Shown here piece by piece: positions 19,070 to 34,469 of a stretch of 43,558 bases of DNA (positions are counted from its first letter, which is position 1; every line of letters starts with the position of its first letter). Under the pieces are notes generated by a model that was given only the letters and a program-made list of their open reading frames with translations, ran no database searches and was not told where the DNA came from. The position numbers were made by a program, and so were the translations under genes. The stretch spans positions 1 to 43,558 of the forward strand of contig JABCSY010000025.1 in assembly GCA_018238625.1 (NCBI GenBank), read 5' to 3'. The stretch is from Promethearchaeota archaeon (GTDB lineage: Archaea; Asgardarchaeota; Lokiarchaeia; Sigyniarchaeales; SOKP01).

Positions 19070-22000
19070 ATGGCATCAATTTCCGATTTTGGAAAAGAAC
19101 ATAATATTGGCGATATTCTTAAAGATAATTTTGATGATTTAGTTTTTATTTTAAATGAAAACTTCGAATGCGAATATGTTAACGAAAAAGTTCATCTAGA
19201 AAAATTAGGCTACTCCTGTTTAGCTCATAAAATCTTAGATAACTTTTATTTCGACGATTTAGATCGAGGTTTGAATTTTCTTCAAAACGTCTTAGAAGCA
19301 GGAAAAGCAATCGAGCAGCTAAGGATTCGTCAAAATGAAGGATATGGATATTACGAATTAAAAGGAAAACGATTTATTAACGACGCTGATAAAGTTAAAA
19401 TATTAATAATTTCTCGAGACATCTCTAAATTTAAACAACAAGAAGAAGAATGGTATAAACGCGAGTTTAACTTAAGGAGATTAGCAGAAACCATGCCAGA
19501 ACTTCGATTCTGGAAACTAATGCAAACTAAAGGTGAGAAAACATCGTTTCAAAAATCGCGTGAGATGTTGGACTCCGTAATCGATAATATCCCTCAATTA
19601 ATTTATTGGAAAGATAAAAATCTAACCTATCTTGGCTGTAACCAAAATTATGCTTTAGTAAATAATATTGAAGATCCTGATTTTATTATCGGAAAAACTG
19701 ATGAGAATTTACCATGGGCAAAAGCTAACTTAAATTCAATTCAAGAAAATGAAAAAAGGGTTATGAAAACTAATCGAAGCGAAGAAAAGATTGAATCGTG
19801 GATATTAAGTAATGGAAGTAAAGCGTGGTTTGAAATAAACCGAGTACCACTTCATAATATTGAAGGGGATATCGTAGGAATTTTATGCACTTATAACAAT
19901 ATCACAAATAAAGTGAACGCTGAGCAAAAGTTAAAAGAATCTGAGAACAAATATAGAAGCATATTAGAAAACATTAAAGAAGGGTATTTTGAAGTTGATT
20001 TAAAAGGAATTTTTACGTTTTTCAATGAATCCTTTTGCGAAATGACGGGTTATTCAAAAGAAGAACTACTTGGGAAAAGTTATCAAAGTATGTCAGATGA
20101 ATTCAATAGGAAAAAAGTGTTTAACTTCTATAACCAAGTTTATAAAACAGAGGTGGAGCAACGTAATTTCCAGTTTGAGTTTTTTCAAAAAAATAGGCAA
20201 AAAATCGCAGTAAATTCATCAGTATATTTAAAATACGATGCTAAAGGTGCTAAATCTGGTTTTTGTGGAATGGTACAAGACTTTACAGAGAAAATTATTT
20301 TAGAAGAGAAACTTAAACACTCAGAAGAAAGATATGAATTGATATCAGAAAATGCAAATGATTTAATTTCTATTTTAAATCAAAATCTTAAATTTGAATA
20401 CATGAACGAAAAACCATGTTTATTAACATTAGGATATTCAAGAGACGAAATAATTAGAAAATCAGTTCTTGATTTTGTTCATCCCGATGATAAGAAGAAA
20501 GCAATTAAAAAATTAGTTGATGGTCTAGAAAAAGGTAAAAATGTTCTCGAACTTAGGATAAAACACAAAAAAGGTTATTGGGTGTGGATAGAAGTTAAAG
20601 GCAACGCTTTTAAAGATAAGGACGGTAAGATCAAAGGAATACTTATTGGAAGAGATATTACAGAACGCAAAGAAGCCAATAGAAGAATTAAAGAATCAGA
20701 AGAAAAATATCGTACTATTTTTAATGCCAGCCCTGAATTTATATATCTCACTGATTTAAAAGGCAATATATTGGATGCCAATCAAGCATTTCTAAAGAAA
20801 ACGAAAATAAGTTTAAACGAAACACAAAATAAACGAATTCTAGACTATTTTGTTGGAGAAAATCTCGAAGATTTAAAGGCAAAAATTAATGAATTGAGAG
20901 CAGGTAAAGTAATAACAAATCTTGAGGCTACAGTAGAAAACGTTCTGGGTGAAATTTATGATTGTGAAATAAATGCGGTTCCTTTGAAAGAAAACGGAAA
21001 AATTACTAAAGCTATAAGTTTTGCCAGAGACATAACCGCCCGTAAACAAGCGGAACAAAAATTAATTAGATCGGAGAAAAAATATCGACACTTATTTGAA
21101 AGTTCTCCGTTTTCCATATGGATAGTGGATTTAAAGGGAGTAATAATTGACTGTAATTCGACGATGAAGATATTACCCTCGAAATACGAGAGAGGTGACC
21201 TTATTGGAAAAAACTTTATGGAGGTTTTAACTTTATTCGATCGACCAGAATACTTTATTCCGCTTTTTAAAAACAATTTTGAAGGTTTTATTAATAATGA
21301 GAGATTAAAACCGTTAGAATTCAAAATGACTCGCGTAGATAAAGTGGAAAAATGGATGAATATACGAGCATCTAAGATTAAATTAGGAGATGAAACTTTG
21401 GTACAAGTTTTAATTCAGAACATTACTGAAAAGAAAGAAGCTGCCTTAAAATTAGAGAAGTCTGAAGAAGAATTAAAAATTTTGAATAGAGAACTTGAAG
21501 AAATAGTTTTTGAAAGAACGAAGGAGCTAAGAGAATCTGAACGTAAATATCGACACTTATTCGAAAATTCACCGTTCAGTATTGCGCTCTTAAATACTAA
21601 AGGTATAATCATTGATGTTAATTCTACAACTTCTAAATTATTCGGTTTTAAAAAAGATGACCTTATCGGTAAAAATTATTTAAAACTTTCATACCTTTTT
21701 CCTTCAGATACAAGACCAGGATTGAGAACGTTTCAGGAGCTAGATCGTAAAAAGGACCCAAAGAGTATCGTAATAAAACCTTCAACCGTACAAATATTTA
21801 ACAAAGATAACAAAATGATATGGGTTGAATCGGAATTATCCACTATTGAAATAGGTGGTGAATTAATGATTCAAGCAATAATACAAGATGTAACCGATAA
21901 AAAGATCGCAGAAGAGAAATTGAAAGAATCCGAACGAATGTTAAGGCAACAAAATATAGAACTAAAAGAATTTGATAGATTAAAAACCGATTTTATTAGC

Positions 22001-22663
22001 ATTGCCGCTCACGACTTAAAAACTCCGTTAATTTCGGTAGGGGGTTATATAGATTTAATATTACTAAGAGAGAAAGATTTAAAAGACGATATTAAAGAAG
22101 ATTTAAATCGAGTATTAAGCAATGTAGCCCGTTTGGAAAGTTACATTAATCGGTTATTGGACGTGATGAAAATAGATGCGGGCAAAATTGAAATAATTAA
22201 GAAGGTCGAAAATATTTACGATATAATAACAGATTGTCTTTCTGAATTAGAATACCAAATAAGTCAAAAAAATATAACTATAAACTTAAATGTCCCTGAG
22301 GATCTTGAACTAATAGTGGATCGATTTAGAATCACGCAAGTTTTCTCGAATATTTTATCAAACGCCGTGAAATTTTCTTCTAACGACGATATAATTAACA
22401 TTAATGTTTTGGAAGAAAACCAAAATTTTCTTTTTAAAATAGAGGACCACGGAAAGGGGTTAACTCTAAAAGAAATTGAAAAATTATTTGGTAAATTTGT
22501 TACAATTGGACAAGCCACTGAAAGTTATTCTGCCTTTGAAAAAGGAAGTGGATTAGGACTTTACATTAGTAAAGGAATGATTGAAGTACACGGTGGTAAA
22601 ATTTGGGTGGAATCAGAAGGAAGGGATAAGGGAGCCGAGTTTAGCTTTACTTTACCAAAGTAA
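19070..22663 (+). CDS. Cytoplasmic multi-PAS (about 7) sensor histidine kinase
   Basis: Repeated SE.KYR..FE...D..G / RDIT.RK PAS-PAC units. H-box AAHDLKTPL, N-box NILSNAVKF, DHGKG, GSGLGL. Confidence 0.95.
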   Translation: MASISDFGKEHNIGDILKDNFDDLVFILNENFECEYVNEKVHLEKLGYSCLAHKILDNFYFDDLDRGLNFLQNVLEAGKAIEQLRIRQNEGYGYYELKGKRFINDADKVKILIISRDISKFKQQEEEWYKREFNLRRLAETMPELRFWKLMQTKGEKTSFQKSREMLDSVIDNIPQLIYWKDKNLTYLGCNQNYALVNNIEDPDFIIGKTDENLPWAKANLNSIQENEKRVMKTNRSEEKIESWILSNGSKAWFEINRVPLHNIEGDIVGILCTYNNITNKVNAEQKLKESENKYRSILENIKEGYFEVDLKGIFTFFNESFCEMTGYSKEELLGKSYQSMSDEFNRKKVFNFYNQVYKTEVEQRNFQFEFFQKNRQKIAVNSSVYLKYDAKGAKSGFCGMVQDFTEKIILEEKLKHSEERYELISENANDLISILNQNLKFEYMNEKPCLLTLGYSRDEIIRKSVLDFVHPDDKKKAIKKLVDGLEKGKNVLELRIKHKKGYWVWIEVKGNAFKDKDGKIKGILIGRDITERKEANRRIKESEEKYRTIFNASPEFIYLTDLKGNILDANQAFLKKTKISLNETQNKRILDYFVGENLEDLKAKINELRAGKVITNLEATVENVLGEIYDCEINAVPLKENGKITKAISFARDITARKQAEQKLIRSEKKYRHLFESSPFSIWIVDLKGVIIDCNSTMKILPSKYERGDLIGKNFMEVLTLFDRPEYFIPLFKNNFEGFINNERLKPLEFKMTRVDKVEKWMNIRASKIKLGDETLVQVLIQNITEKKEAALKLEKSEEELKILNRELEEIVFERTKELRESERKYRHLFENSPFSIALLNTKGIIIDVNSTTSKLFGFKKDDLIGKNYLKLSYLFPSDTRPGLRTFQELDRKKDPKSIVIKPSTVQIFNKDNKMIWVESELSTIEIGGELMIQAIIQDVTDKKIAEEKLKESERMLRQQNIELKEFDRLKTDFISIAAHDLKTPLISVGGYIDLILLREKDLKDDIKEDLNRVLSNVARLESYINRLLDVMKIDAGKIEIIKKVENIYDIITDCLSELEYQISQKNITINLNVPEDLELIVDRFRITQVFSNILSNAVKFSSNDDIININVLEENQNFLFKIEDHGKGLTLKEIEKLFGKFVTIGQATESYSAFEKGSGLGLYISKGMIEVHGGKIWVESEGRDKGAEFSFTLPK

Positions 22664-25636: not shown

Positions 25637-26752
25637 CTATAATAGGTTCTCTGGGATGCCATCTTTAAAATATTTAGCACGCGTTACCCAATTACTTTGA
25701 AATTCAGGAATGCTAGCTAAGATCGAGCCACCAACCCAAACAGAAAAGACTCTTTCTCGAGGTGCTATAATTTTGATCACTTGGTTCTTTTTCTTTCTCC
25801 GTGCTAATTCAAATTCTAATTCTTGATACATTCTAGATTTGAAATTTGGAAACATCGAAGAGCCTCCAGATAGAAAGATGTTATTCAATAAGTCTGGGCG
25901 GATATCGACGTCACACATTTCAATTACGTCCATAATGGCTTCTGTTAAAGAATCTTCTTCCAAATCTAATGCTGGATTAAAAAAAAGCTCAGGTACAGCA
26001 AATCTTTCTTTACTCAAAGAAATGGTAGAACCATCTGGTAGAGAATATTCTTTTTCATATTGTTCAACTCTTTTTAAATCTTCTTTATAATCGAGCGAGA
26101 CGAAGCAAGCTTTTTCTTTGAGAGCTCTTACCAGTTCTTTTCTAATTGAAGAGTCAGCTGAAAAGCCACTTTCTCCTAATATTTTTTCCATGTACTTTGT
26201 TAAGGTTCTTCCACCAATCTCAAGAATCCTTACTGCATGGTCTAACTTGTATCCCTCGTAAATTGGCACTATTCTCGTAATACTATCCCCTATCTCAACC
26301 ACTAACCCTGTTTGAAATCCTCCAGCATATAAAGTAAGCATAGAATCTAAAACGGGATAAAACGCGTTGCACTGGTATTTTTCTAAAAACAATTCAAATA
26401 ACCGCTTTATATCCCCGTATGGAAACAATGGGTGTACGGCAAATAGTACGTTGACTAAAGATGGATCAACTCTTAAATTGTAGAAAATATAATCAATTAT
26501 TTTTTCAAACGAGAGCCAGTCTTGAATTATTCCTTTATCTATAGGATAAAAAACTTTATACAAACCTATTGATTGGATTTCGTCCCCTACATAATATTCG
26601 TCTTGTTTAATACCCGCGTATTCGTAATCGATCTGCCTATATTTAGGTTTTCCTACTATGGTAAAAAAGATTTGAGTTGGCATATCTTCCCCAGCATAAC
26701 CGGCTTTTGTCGAGAATTGCCCAATATCCAAAACAACAGTAAGATTGCCCAT
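25637..26752 (-). CDS. Actin-family protein (divergent Asgard actin-related protein)
   Basis: Collinear with actin: VVLDIG..STKAGYAGED.P, YVGDE, YPI..GII.DW, GD...IVPIYEGY, LKEKACFV, YSLPDG, ERF.VPE.FF.P, CDVDIR.DL..NI.LSGGSSMFP, R..SVWVGGSILAS. Confidence 0.95.
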   Translation of the reverse strand: MGNLTVVLDIGQFSTKAGYAGEDMPTQIFFTIVGKPKYRQIDYEYAGIKQDEYYVGDEIQSIGLYKVFYPIDKGIIQDWLSFEKIIDYIFYNLRVDPSLVNVLFAVHPLFPYGDIKRLFELFLEKYQCNAFYPVLDSMLTLYAGGFQTGLVVEIGDSITRIVPIYEGYKLDHAVRILEIGGRTLTKYMEKILGESGFSADSSIRKELVRALKEKACFVSLDYKEDLKRVEQYEKEYSLPDGSTISLSKERFAVPELFFNPALDLEEDSLTEAIMDVIEMCDVDIRPDLLNNIFLSGGSSMFPNFKSRMYQELEFELARRKKKNQVIKIIAPRERVFSVWVGGSILASIPEFQSNWVTRAKYFKDGIPENLL

Positions 26753-27651: not shown

Positions 27652-28362
27652 TTATTCTCCTCTCATTATTTTCTTTAGGCGATTTAACTCTTCTAACATT
27701 TCATCGCGTAAAGAACTCAATCCTCCTCCCGCACTAGGTGCCGTTGCTGGGGCCGCTATAGGAGCTGCAGGTCGAGGGGGTGCACCCGATACGGGCGCAG
27801 CGGGAGGTGCTGGTCTTTTGGCAAATGATGGAGCTTGAACTACTCCCGAATTAGGAGCTTGTGGAGGTCCACCAGATGTTGGAGGTAATTTTGGAGCCGG
27901 TGGTAGATTAGCGCGCTTAGGAGGAACGCCAGCCTTTGGAGCTTGTGGAGGTCCACTTGTTGCGGGTCTCTTTGGAGGTCCACCGGAAGCTGGAGCTTTT
28001 GGAGGACCGCTTCCAGGTTTCTTAGGGGGAACGCCAATTGCGGGAGCCATGCTCGCTTGAGCAGTAGCAGGTGCATGTTGTGCAGAACCGGCACTACCGC
28101 TCAATAAACTAAATAATGTGCTCGCAGCAGCAGTCTTTGCAGTTCCACTTGCGGGAGCAACAACTTTTTTAGAAGAACTACTAACAGTTTGAACTTCTGG
28201 TTTTAATGAAACTTCTTTCAAATCCTTTAACGCTTTATTTAACGACTTTATGAAATCGTTTATTCCCTTAACTGTGTCGTCTAGGTCGTCACTTAACGAT
28301 TGTAGACCTTTTTTCATAAAGTTTACGACGCGCTCTATCTTTTTGTATTCCTTAGAAACCAA
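27652..28362 (-). CDS. Coiled-coil / Pro-Ala-Gly-rich / C-terminal amphipathic-helix (WH2-like) protein
   Basis: N-terminal heptads, repeated (S)GGPP[KQ][AR]P units, C-terminus GGGLSSLRDEMLEELNRLKKIMRGE. GAGG SD before a TTG start. Confidence 0.8.
   Translation of the reverse strand: MVSKEYKKIERVVNFMKKGLQSLSDDLDDTVKGINDFIKSLNKALKDLKEVSLKPEVQTVSSSSKKVVAPASGTAKTAAASTLFSLLSGSAGSAQHAPATAQASMAPAIGVPPKKPGSGPPKAPASGGPPKRPATSGPPQAPKAGVPPKRANLPPAPKLPPTSGGPPQAPNSGVVQAPSFAKRPAPPAAPVSGAPPRPAAPIAAPATAPSAGGGLSSLRDEMLEELNRLKKIMRGE
27854..27956. repeat. 19-bp internal direct repeat in the Pro-rich gene
   Basis: GGAGCTTGTGGAGGTCCAC at 27854-27872 and 27938-27956 (GPPQAP units). Confidence 0.9.
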
Positions 28363-28657: not shown

Positions 28658-28924
28658 ATTCCAAAGCGAGAACTCTTCATTAAACGAGTTTATGAAATTG
28701 TAAATGAGTTAAAAATCCCATTGATCGATGAGCGTGTATACGATAAAGTCACTTTTAGTGGTAGCGCCGCCATAGCGAAAGTTGTGTTTAAATTTGAGGA
28801 AGACGAATCTGTAATTCGTGGATTCTTAGGTTTGGCTGAATACTTTCATACTGTGGTAATAAAATCTAAAGACCAATTCTATATACCACACGCAAATATT
28901 CTCTTTCAATTGATCAGCTCATAA
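28658..28924 (+). CDS. Small hypothetical protein, probably 88 aa from an ATT start
   Basis: Frame is open back to the TAA at 28652. AGGTG SD (28646-28650) precedes ATT at 28658, giving (M)PKRELFIKRVYEIVNELKIPLIDERVYDK... Confidence 0.65.
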   Translation: MPKRELFIKRVYEIVNELKIPLIDERVYDKVTFSGSAAIAKVVFKFEEDESVIRGFLGLAEYFHTVVIKSKDQFYIPHANILFQLISS

Positions 28925-32951: not shown

Positions 32952-34469
32952 ATGGGTTTTCAAGAGCTTAAAAGTTCATACCTAAAAGAGACAGTTCCTC
33001 TGAAAAAAATACAAATAATCGAATCAGTGGCTCTACATTTTGAAAATGGTGGGCTAGAATTTCTAATGTCCCAGTATAAAAGCGAAAGCGATGGTAAAGT
33101 AAGAAAGAAAATAATTGATCTTGCTGGGAAAAATATAAACGACATCTCCATCCAATTACTAATCAAGGCTCTTACAGACAATAACATTGAGTCAAGAAAG
33201 GCAGCTGTGATAGCTTTAGGAAAAGCAAAAGCATCCATAGCCTTAATTCCTTTAATAAGCATGCTCCAAAATCCCTCTTTAGAGATTAAAGACGCCGTAC
33301 TTGCTTCTATTATAAGGGTTGGGAAAGTAGGATCCTCAGACATAATATTCGATTACATAAACAAAGGAAATATTCACGTTAAAAGATTAATCCCATACAT
33401 ATTAGGAAAGATTGGTAGTGAAGAGTGCATTGAGAGACTAAAAGAATTATTAGCACACGAAGACCCGCTAATTCGTAAGAATTCAGTCAAAGGATTAGAA
33501 AGATTAATTCAATTAAAAGACGCAAAGTTTATTCTGAACGCTTTAAACGACGAAGATTTACGCGTAAAAAAAGCTGCAATCAAAGCATTAAGCACGATAA
33601 AAAGTAAAAGGGCTATTCCTCATTTAATTAAATTTTTAAAAGAAAAAAATCCTGAGATTCGAAAGTTATCTGTTCGAACTTTATTCTCAATTTTATCAAA
33701 TCAACCTCCTCCATACGATAAAATCTACGAAATTTTGAACGGACTGAATATTATATCTAGAAGAGAAGCGATAAAAATTTTGAGCTTATTAGAGGATAAA
33801 AACTCTGTCGATTACCTTGTAAGAACATTTAATAGTAAAGATGCAAAATTGAGAAGGTTAGCACATAAGGCAATCTTAAATATATCTAAAGATACGGTTC
33901 CAACTCAAATAGTTGATGGTTTGAACGCAAAAGAATGGAAAATTAGGAGTTTATGCGCAAGAGTTATCGGAGAAATTGGTGATGAAAAACTAATCAAAGC
34001 ACTTTTTGCTTTATTAAGTGATAATGATAGTAAGGTAAGGGACGCAGCAATAGAAGCGCTATCAAGCTTTGAGAGCGAAAATGTAATTGAAAGCGCAAAA
34101 AATTTAACAACCAATTTAAATTGGAAAACAAGAAGAGCAGCAGTTAAACTTTTAATAAAAATTGGTAATGATAAGTCTACCGAATCTTTAATTGGATTAA
34201 TGAGCGATAAAGATGTATTTATTCGAAGTTGGGTAGCAATGTCGTTAGGAAAACTAGAAAATATTAACGATATAACTCCCTTTACATCATTGCTAAAAGA
34301 TAGAGATCCTAAATTGCGGATTGCTGCGGCAAAAGCATTGGGTCAAATTGGAGATAAAGAAGCGTTAGAATATTTGGCTAAATCACTTTGGGACGACAAT
34401 TGGAAAGTAAGAAAAGAAATTGAAGGAGCTCTTAATAAAATCGACCCTAATTGGTTAGGATTAATTTAG
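32952..34469 (+). CDS. Long HEAT-repeat protein
   Basis: More than a dozen ~31-aa L.D.D..VR.AA..ALG.IG repeats. Confidence 0.92.
   Translation: MGFQELKSSYLKETVPLKKIQIIESVALHFENGGLEFLMSQYKSESDGKVRKKIIDLAGKNINDISIQLLIKALTDNNIESRKAAVIALGKAKASIALIPLISMLQNPSLEIKDAVLASIIRVGKVGSSDIIFDYINKGNIHVKRLIPYILGKIGSEECIERLKELLAHEDPLIRKNSVKGLERLIQLKDAKFILNALNDEDLRVKKAAIKALSTIKSKRAIPHLIKFLKEKNPEIRKLSVRTLFSILSNQPPPYDKIYEILNGLNIISRREAIKILSLLEDKNSVDYLVRTFNSKDAKLRRLAHKAILNISKDTVPTQIVDGLNAKEWKIRSLCARVIGEIGDEKLIKALFALLSDNDSKVRDAAIEALSSFESENVIESAKNLTTNLNWKTRRAAVKLLIKIGNDKSTESLIGLMSDKDVFIRSWVAMSLGKLENINDITPFTSLLKDRDPKLRIAAAKALGQIGDKEALEYLAKSLWDDNWKVRKEIEGALNKIDPNWLGLI

Follow-up and report, generated by a model that had tools for sequence, protein, structure and literature searches.

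A strongly conserved, undescribed Asgard-archaeal protein family with a proline-rich arm and a candidate docking helix at its C-terminus

Does a proline-rich protein that ends in a helix containing LKKI, and whose gene lies two genes away from an actin paralogue, belong with the WH2, WASP, WAVE and VASP proteins? The protein in question, 236 amino acids (aa) long, is encoded in a 43,558-nucleotide (nt) stretch of DNA from a Promethearchaeota archaeon (Lokiarchaeia; assembly GCA_018238625.1, contig JABCSY010000025.1, positions 1 to 43,558), referred to here as the window. An earlier note, made from the sequence alone, had proposed a WAVE/WASP/VASP-like architecture ending in a WH2-like motif. 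The analysis demonstrates that the gene is real and represents a strongly conserved, undescribed Asgard-archaeal family, with a defined architecture, a tail that is conserved and reused, and a small partner gene with which it is paired; the protein is not a recognisable WH2, WASP, WAVE or VASP member. Its end helix probably acts as a docking motif, and the receptor on which it might dock is weighed below.

The reading frame opens with TTG (coordinates of this and all other features are collected in Table 1), and the starts of homologues coincide with this position, where the family alignment contains M, L or V. Because homologues share the start and the AlphaFold2 helix begins at residue 4, the long form is taken to be the gene. 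The AlphaFold2 model, built with 39 family sequences (mean predicted local distance difference test score, pLDDT, 62.8), contains three helices, at residues 4-52 (block pLDDT 86-96), 75-87 (about 50-57) and 214-233 (73-94), with a low-confidence arm between them (mostly below 60). The arm carries four GPP[KQ][AR]P repeats, or five if the first G may be V ([GV]PP[KQ][AKR]P, five copies); the longest proline run is two, and Trp is absent from the whole protein. Model and alignment agree with the helix, proline-rich arm and conserved C-terminal amphipathic helix that the earlier note had described; the sequence stretches that it quoted are all present, its placement of the tail at nt 27655-27729 was exact, and its caveats that there is no acidic/Trp motif and no proline run longer than two were correct. 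The STLFSLLS segment (residues 81-88) falls within the weakly predicted helix 75-87, and other families have LWSLL, LFDFL, VFDMF or LWSSL at this LFxLL-type segment. This [FW]xx[LF] motif is often preceded by acidic residues or Ser/Thr (EDLWSLL, DSLFDFL, DDVFDMF, QELWSSL in L097-L106 and L189-L192), a form that Atg8-interacting motifs also have.

A word-index search with the protein returned 192 database proteins at E<=0.01, all named at source as hypothetical proteins of Lokiarchaeota/Promethearchaeota and none carrying a precomputed Pfam domain. Amongst the 120 relatives listed, TLFxLLS is present in 120, LPPAPKLPP in 117, FAKR in 112 and the tail, LRDEML[ED]EL[NT]RLKKIMR, in 119, the remaining protein being truncated. 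The count of GPPKAP-type repeats differs between these relatives; with a variable number of repeats between fixed motifs, the arm therefore behaves as a spacer. Searches of Pfam and NCBIfam with the 236-aa protein gave sub-threshold rows only and no family above its cut-off. The head, submitted to the ESM Atlas, returned the family's own cluster alone (357 members, 99% Archaea, score 0.79). Sequence searches of the PDB with the whole-family profile, the single tail and a 15-sequence tail profile gave nothing below E 0.029 (the best match of the family profile, Mediator subunit 7, has E 1.0), and no WH2, ESCRT-III, VASP, WAVE or actin-binding chain is amongst their matches. No description of the family was found in the available portions of the literature on Asgard actin, WH2, polyproline and profilin; in those portions, Asgard actin papers place WH2-like four-residue motifs inside gelsolins only and treat polyproline motifs in general terms.

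The tail is distributed much more widely than the rest of the Loki-type protein. A profile of the whole protein has a match in 95 of 301 sampled Asgard genomes, and a 30-position profile of the tail has one in 264 (85 of the 90 high-quality genomes), mostly at one place per genome and in frames of about 210-360 aa; a family of this breadth has no Pfam or NCBIfam entry, and few short motifs of the phylum are as conserved as its end helix. Fifteen tails from 11 families (families carry the labels given by the search tool, e.g., f1, f2, f7, f16) all have L218, M222, E225, R228 and K230, and E221 is near-invariant (one f23 relative outside this alignment has A). At 20 distant loci, the tail belongs to a protein with a soluble helix head in 12 cases (f2, f6, f7, f16) and to a membrane-anchored form in eight (f9, f11, f17, f19, f20). 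The membrane-anchored form consists of a hydrophobic transmembrane stretch, basic residues, a coiled coil, a proline-rich spacer and the same tail, and by the positive-inside rule its arm and tail would be cytoplasmic; FAK of the PSFAKRP segment is also present in the membrane-anchored relatives L107 and L112. Relatives of one membrane-anchored protein have the source names Njordarchaeota or Atabeyarchaeia, and two of 24 were labelled ZipA by the JGI pipeline. Such relatives do resemble ZipA in their N-terminal transmembrane helix, coiled coil and long proline-rich spacer, but the end of ZipA is a globular, peptide-receiving domain, whereas the tether of the 236-aa family itself ends in a peptide-like helix; the JGI name is automatic, with no homology shown.

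Within the genome itself, the motif L[RK][DEQN]E[MVILF][LIVM]xx[LIVMF]xx[LIVMF][KR] occurs four times in 6584 open reading frames (ORFs) of at least 80 aa, compared with 0.2 times in shuffled sequences, and three of the four copies lie within 20 residues of a C-terminus, compared with 0.0 in shuffles; the unrelated proteins that carry it are listed in Table 1. None of 123 candidates for longer database proteins with the exact tail matched at E<=10. Two families lack a match to the tail profile, f24 (zero of six) and f21 (zero of five), and no displaced membrane-type gene stands beside rpiA in five genomes of these families. Tail-less genomes of these two families include G041, G052 and G071 (f21) and G062, G078, G085, G091, G108 and G117 (f24). 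A second small protein of like build is encoded at G000:C188:16033-16545 (minus strand; locus L179:5001-5447). It is helical at the N-terminus, continues with a GPPGGPP... stretch that includes five prolines in a row, and finishes in a ...SLRGAIMGELKSLFAKR helix with a loose likeness to the tail of the 236-aa protein; it matches no Pfam or NCBIfam family.

Table 1. Positions of the 236-aa gene, its segments, its neighbours in the window and the other tail-type motifs of the genome (plain numbers are window positions; contig-prefixed positions lie elsewhere in the genome)
Feature	Position	Strand	Basis or remark
Whole gene, 236 aa, TTG start	27652..28362	-	Member of undescribed Asgard family
Head helix, residues 4-52	28207..28353	-	AlphaFold2 helix; invariant KGLxSLxDDLxxTVxGIxDFxKSLxKAxKDL (alignment columns)
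Conserved short motif of [FW]xx[LF] type, AKTAAASTLFSLLSG (residues 75-89)	28096..28140	-	Invariant in family alignment A1; weak helix 75-87
Flexible arm, proline-rich and lysine/arginine-rich, residues 100-211	27730..28065	-	30% Pro, low pLDDT, alignment indels
Invariant LPPAPKLPP, residues 153-161	27880..27906	-	Alignment A1; local pLDDT bump to 71
PSFAKRP, residues 178-184	27811..27831	-	F, K and R invariant in alignment
Tail GGGLSSLRDEMLEELNRLKKIMRGE, residues 212-236; predicted docking helix 214-233	27655..27729	-	AlphaFold2 single helix
Unannotated alpha/beta protein, 88 aa, divergently transcribed	28658..28924	+	Adjacency; AlphaFold2 pLDDT 89.3
Divergent actin paralogue, two genes downstream	25637..26752	-	Pfam Actin 5.1e-90; 44% identical to the genome's Lokiactin (C138:17657-18799)
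Tail-type motif ...GSLRDEVLAKLKEFKGKYT	G000:C199:51851-53971	-	End of unrelated 701-aa DUF11 protein
Tail-type motif ...GLRQEMLGELNSLKNI	C74:25471-26217	-	Near end of unrelated 245-aa beta-rich protein, weak DUF4140 match
Tail-type motif FLRDEMLTELSHLK, internal	C48:8312-8800	+	Unrelated 157-aa protein

Membership of the tail in WH2, as opposed to its place in the architecture, did not survive comparison with profiles. Neither the whole protein nor its last 54 or 42 aa gave a row with the Pfam WH2 profile at E<=10, and when the same profile (PF02205) was run over the six frames of the genome, it met one unrelated place only (contig C164, E 2.86, 10.9 bits where the cut-off is 23.1). The WH2 consensus is roughly LLxxIxxGxxLKKV, a helix followed by a short non-helical linker and LKK[TV]. 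The tail is like the WH2 of WASP, WAVE and WIP in that an amphipathic RxxΦLxxL precedes LKK[IV] at the end of a proline-rich protein, but L226 and L229 are three residues apart compared with six in the consensus, so that LKK comes three residues early, and the predicted helix 214-233 runs unbroken through LKKI (a prediction for the free chain); moreover, a central/acidic region and Trp are missing. Conservation of LKK among orthologues, whose absence the earlier note had named as a refutation of its proposal, holds for 119 of 120 close relatives and breaks down at the 20 distant loci, where LKK is found five times, IKE/LKE seven, LKA three, LKR three, LKS once and IKG once, the second K being replaced by E, A, S, R or G in 15 of the 20. 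The proposed VASP and WAVE membership fared no better: no such Pfam match was found for tail, head or whole protein at E<=10, the profiles WH1 and VASP_tetra included, and residues 1-95 gave sub-threshold coiled-coil-type rows only (best DUF948, 17.7 bits against a cut-off of 37.2). The 236-aa protein could still work like a WH2-type protein if its end helix grips actin, or it may equally be a Vps4-directed tail.

The small gene upstream of the 236-aa gene encodes an 88-aa protein that is co-inherited with one form of the family. The conserved N-terminus of its frame has no ATG, GTG or TTG, and an ATT seven bases after AGGTG is the probable start codon; close relatives have I, L or M at this position. 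The 88-aa protein is more conserved than the 236-aa protein (66-98% identity in 69 close loci), and a paralogue lies at G000:C60:36276-36536. The two genes adjoin in 69 of 80 close loci (some end short upstream), in 11 of 11 distant soluble-type loci and in five of five loci of f5, f23 and f25. In all, the 88-aa gene stands next to the soluble form in seven families, and the order of the two varies: they are divergent in the window, but f7, f16, f23 and f25 have them convergent, and f5 and f6 in tandem. The 88-aa gene is no neighbour at the one f2 locus examined (L116), in f12 (zero of two) or in one genus of f11 (zero of three), and it is beside the membrane-anchored form at none of eight distant loci. 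When counted by family, the 88-aa protein is present in f1 (62 of 68), f2 (6 of 7), f7 (4 of 4), f16 (16 of 19), f23 (6 of 6) and f25 (3 of 3), and it was not found in the families sampled as membrane type only, f9 (0 of 31), f17 (0 of 3), f19 (0 of 4) and f20 (0 of 4). This distribution implies that the 88-aa protein goes with the soluble head and not with the tail, and the head of the 236-aa protein may well bind it. Contigs from RNA libraries of related organisms span parts of both genes (runs X1, X3, X4 and X6, from three studies), coverage that is not counted as expression, as such libraries may contain DNA.

AlphaFold2 predicts the 88-aa protein with high confidence (predicted template modelling score, pTM, 0.81) as helix, strand, helix, strand, helix and three strands. 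A fold search with this model reached at best E 0.24 in Foldseek and Z 4.5 in VIA-align, the latter under that tool's noise level, and a new fold is not claimed. The protein has no Pfam family, its profile found 27 relatives among 1.84 billion representatives, all stand-alone (33-115 aa) and none a fusion, and the ESM Atlas returned unrelated ParA-like fragments only. A side observation concerns the 88-aa gene in several relatives (L046:4408-4722, L057, L081, L085, L059, L044, L036 and L028, all on the minus strand), which contains an in-frame insertion of 30 nt that includes a stop codon and separates the ...ELFI codons from those for KRVYEIV...; L040:4328-4678 has another site. In the RNAfold structure, the coding parts on either side of the insertion pair as an outer helix, inside which lie an internal loop and then a hairpin (free energy -8.8 to -17.7 kcal/mol), and both sides of the hairpin stem differ among three sequence types. 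The insertion, not canonical in its minimum-energy fold, may be a mini-intron of bulge-helix-bulge-like form within a protein-coding gene of Lokiarchaeia; translational bypass of the T4-gene-60 type was ruled out, there being no matching take-off and landing codons.

The 236-aa protein can be pictured as a modular tether, in which an assembly head (the 50-residue helix and the LFxLL-type motif), probably held by the co-inherited 88-aa protein, would carry a flexible proline-rich arm of ~110 residues with LPPAPKLPP and PSFAKRP, and the 20-residue amphipathic helix at its end would dock on a hub protein of very high conservation. In other Asgard classes, such an arm with the same end helix hangs from an N-terminal transmembrane helix and coiled coil. 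Since the tail occurs on soluble and on membrane heads, its general job would be to hold the hub wherever the head sets it, be that at the membrane or in a small-protein complex. The single best guess for the hub, with a probability of about 30% and nearly level with actin, is the MIT domain of the Vps4 ATPase; the tail would then be used like the MIM1 of Vps2/24/46, and the protein would be a recruiter or client of Vps4.

This guess comes from sequence likeness. The genome encodes a Vps4 with a MIT domain in its first ~85 residues (C125:12116-13351) and two ESCRT-III (Snf7) proteins (C125 and C109), and the ESCRT-III gene that adjoins Vps4 ends in ...KELEDELNKLKSRD. ESCRT-III C-termini of four related genomes read ...ELEKELNRLKS and have ELNRLK in common with the tail of the 236-aa protein, and both kinds of tail form the extreme C-terminus after a flexible, proline-containing stretch. 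When the C-termini of the genome were ranked by a profile of 13 ESCRT-III tails from other genomes, the tail of the 236-aa protein came 19th of 4779. A class pattern that both kinds of tail satisfy, E-hydrophobic-x-x-[ED]-hydrophobic-x-x-hydrophobic-K in the last 22 residues, is found in three of the 4779 ORFs (the 236-aa gene, the Vps4-adjoining ESCRT-III and one other), the pattern having been composed after both families had been seen. The MIM1 consensus is (D/E)xxLxxRLxxL(K/R), and the tail agrees with it at four of five key positions, with E for R as in the genome's own ESCRT-III tails. The MIM2 motif is (L/V)Px(V/L)P; the LPPAP of the invariant LPPAPKLPP has A where this motif has V or L (a reading of the letters only). 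Leucine-rich, MIM1-like C-terminal helices of Asgard Vps2/24/46 are described in the portion of PMC7240154 that was available.

A considerable number of results weigh against Vps4 as the receptor. The ESCRT-III-tail profile covers only the second half of the tail (positions 10-16), with 5.8 bits compared with 23.0 for the genome's own ESCRT-III, and under it the look-alike tails on unrelated proteins rank 269 and 587. The reverse search fails: profiles of the family tail do not place ESCRT-III tails in the genome's best 30 or 40 places and meet the second ESCRT-III at a non-tail segment only (rank 3626). The MIM1 alternative that the earlier note had offered fits as a pattern at least as well as WH2, but as a profile match it extends over half of the tail. 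The SLRxEM half, most typical of the family and of the look-alike tails, is foreign to ESCRT-III tails, the helix is longer (five hydrophobic turns, L218 to M233), and no Snf7 core was matched in the 236-aa protein at E<=10. No ESCRT gene lies within 5 kb in nine Pfam-scanned distant loci (92 ORFs), no parallel changes of ESCRT-III tails and family tail were seen in f7 or f19, and f24 has Vps4 in six of six genomes and the tail in none of six. The co-inherited 88-aa protein adds no functional clue because its fold is unrecognisable. As for the other tail-less family, f21, full-length Vps4 was found in none of three genomes, which gave Cdc48-like matches only.

A rather doubtful alternative is that Lokiactin, or the actin paralogue nearby, receives the end helix in its hydrophobic groove, much as it would a WH2 or arcadin-2 helix but with no WH2 domain involved. 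The protein would then connect or supply actin where a membrane or complex holds it, its proline-rich arm possibly recruiting profilin. An archaeal precedent exists in arcadin-2 of Pyrobaculum, whose last 17 residues form a helix that binds the hydrophobic groove of crenactin with a dissociation constant of 31 nM (PMC5173319, the portion available; PDB 5LY3). By analogy, the 236-aa protein has a conserved C-terminal helix such as the one that alone carries the interaction in arcadin-2, and its gene is near an actin-family gene in close relatives; the Trp of arcadin-2 is, however, absent, and the link to an actin gene is confined to those relatives. So nearly invariant a tail would suit a partner as conserved as actin (alignment A3, mean column identity 83%), and a membrane anchor, tether and helix would make a sensible link from membrane to filament. 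The phyletic pattern points the same way: 40 of 46 sampled genomes have the tail, each of them with an actin of 70% or higher identity to Lokiactin; the actins of the six tail-less genomes are 70%, 67%, 56%, 54% and 54% identical or, in one, missing, and Vps4 is present in all 46. Three further f21 genomes are tail-less and have an actin of 52-54%, and across tail-less f21 and f24 the actins are only 52-56% identical to Lokiactin. This pattern nonetheless rests on one or two lineages, f21 has kept an ORF resembling gelsolin next to rpiA, and where eukaryote-like genes are few, the loss of both could have other reasons. The missing WH2 match, the short spacing, the LKKI within one helix and the variable second K also count against actin. 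Finally, the main text on Lokiactin co-immunoprecipitation in L. ossiferum (10.1101/2025.11.30.690169) names an Arf GTPase, profilin and gelsolins as partners, and not the family of the 236-aa protein.

The genome contains six actin-family places, one of them the divergent paralogue in the window. No more than 5 kb downstream of the gene, 74 of the 80 close loci have an actin paralogue, but none of the 20 distant loci has one nearby. The adjacency looks like inherited gene order, because the rest of the block is equally kept in close loci (127-aa ORF in 73 of 80, topoisomerase in 68, PIG-L in 49). Pfam scans of the 92 neighbouring ORFs at nine distant loci found housekeeping genes and no actin or ESCRT genes; the neighbours of the membrane-anchored form are rpiA, a PIN-ATPase and a tRNA-splicing endonuclease. 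One record of the block, L026, bears the title of a Nanopelagicaceae bacterium and contains it whole (small gene, 236-aa gene, PIG-L, actin paralogue, topoisomerase), probably through mis-binning of the contig. The window also encodes a 1197-aa histidine kinase with six PAS domains (19070..22663, plus strand) and a 505-aa HEAT-repeat protein (32952..34469, plus strand).

About as likely as Vps4 is that the end helix docks instead on another conserved Asgard receptor (e.g., a helical-repeat, GTPase-associated or ubiquitin-system protein), its resemblance to both WH2 and MIM1 then being that of any amphipathic helix that begins acidic and ends basic. Unbiased searches support neither Vps4 MIT nor actin, the tail type recurs on the unrelated DUF11, beta-rich and 157-aa proteins, whose neighbourhoods contain no ESCRT or actin genes by Pfam apart from one gelsolin-domain gene ~4 kb from the 157-aa gene, and the membrane-anchored form sits among housekeeping genes. 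Yet this alternative names no candidate and hence has nothing positive to offer, and the pattern in common with ESCRT-III tails is rare in the genome. Self-association of the helix in a short leucine-zipper-like bundle of the VASP-tetramerisation type, which would cluster the proline-rich arms, is very unlikely: M222, L226, L229 and M233 are spaced like heptad positions, and the tail profile touches only coiled coils in the PDB (GCN4 fusions, adhesin necks; E 0.03 to 5, not significant), but there are only about two and a half heptads, VASP_tetra is not matched, the head already has a long assembly helix, and a common receptor would better explain why polar E, E, R and K are invariant and why unrelated heads reuse the helix. 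A membrane-targeting role is slightly more improbable still. MinD and FtsA have a C-terminal amphipathic helix on a flexible arm, as does the 236-aa protein, but its helix is acidic (D220, E221, E224, E225), relatives already anchored by a transmembrane stretch keep the same helix, and an invariant E, E and R would not be expected for lipid binding.

This family may bear on how Asgard filaments or the Vps4/ESCRT machine attach to membranes. Should the end helix grip Lokiactin, which is unlikely on present evidence, the family, in its membrane-anchored form as in the one paired with the 88-aa protein, would be a near-universal Asgard device tying actin filaments or monomers to membranes via its proline-rich arm. 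It would then be a functional forerunner of assembly factors of the WASP/VASP/ActA type, having evolved with no WH2 domain, and its loss, or its change past recognition, would be confined to lineages with a diverged actin; profilins and gelsolins are the only established Asgard actin regulators in the available parts of the literature searched. Whether the hub is Vps4, the preferred guess, or actin, identifying the partner of the end helix would place a near-universal Asgard protein in the ESCRT or the actin system, both of which are central to ideas on the origin of eukaryotic cells.

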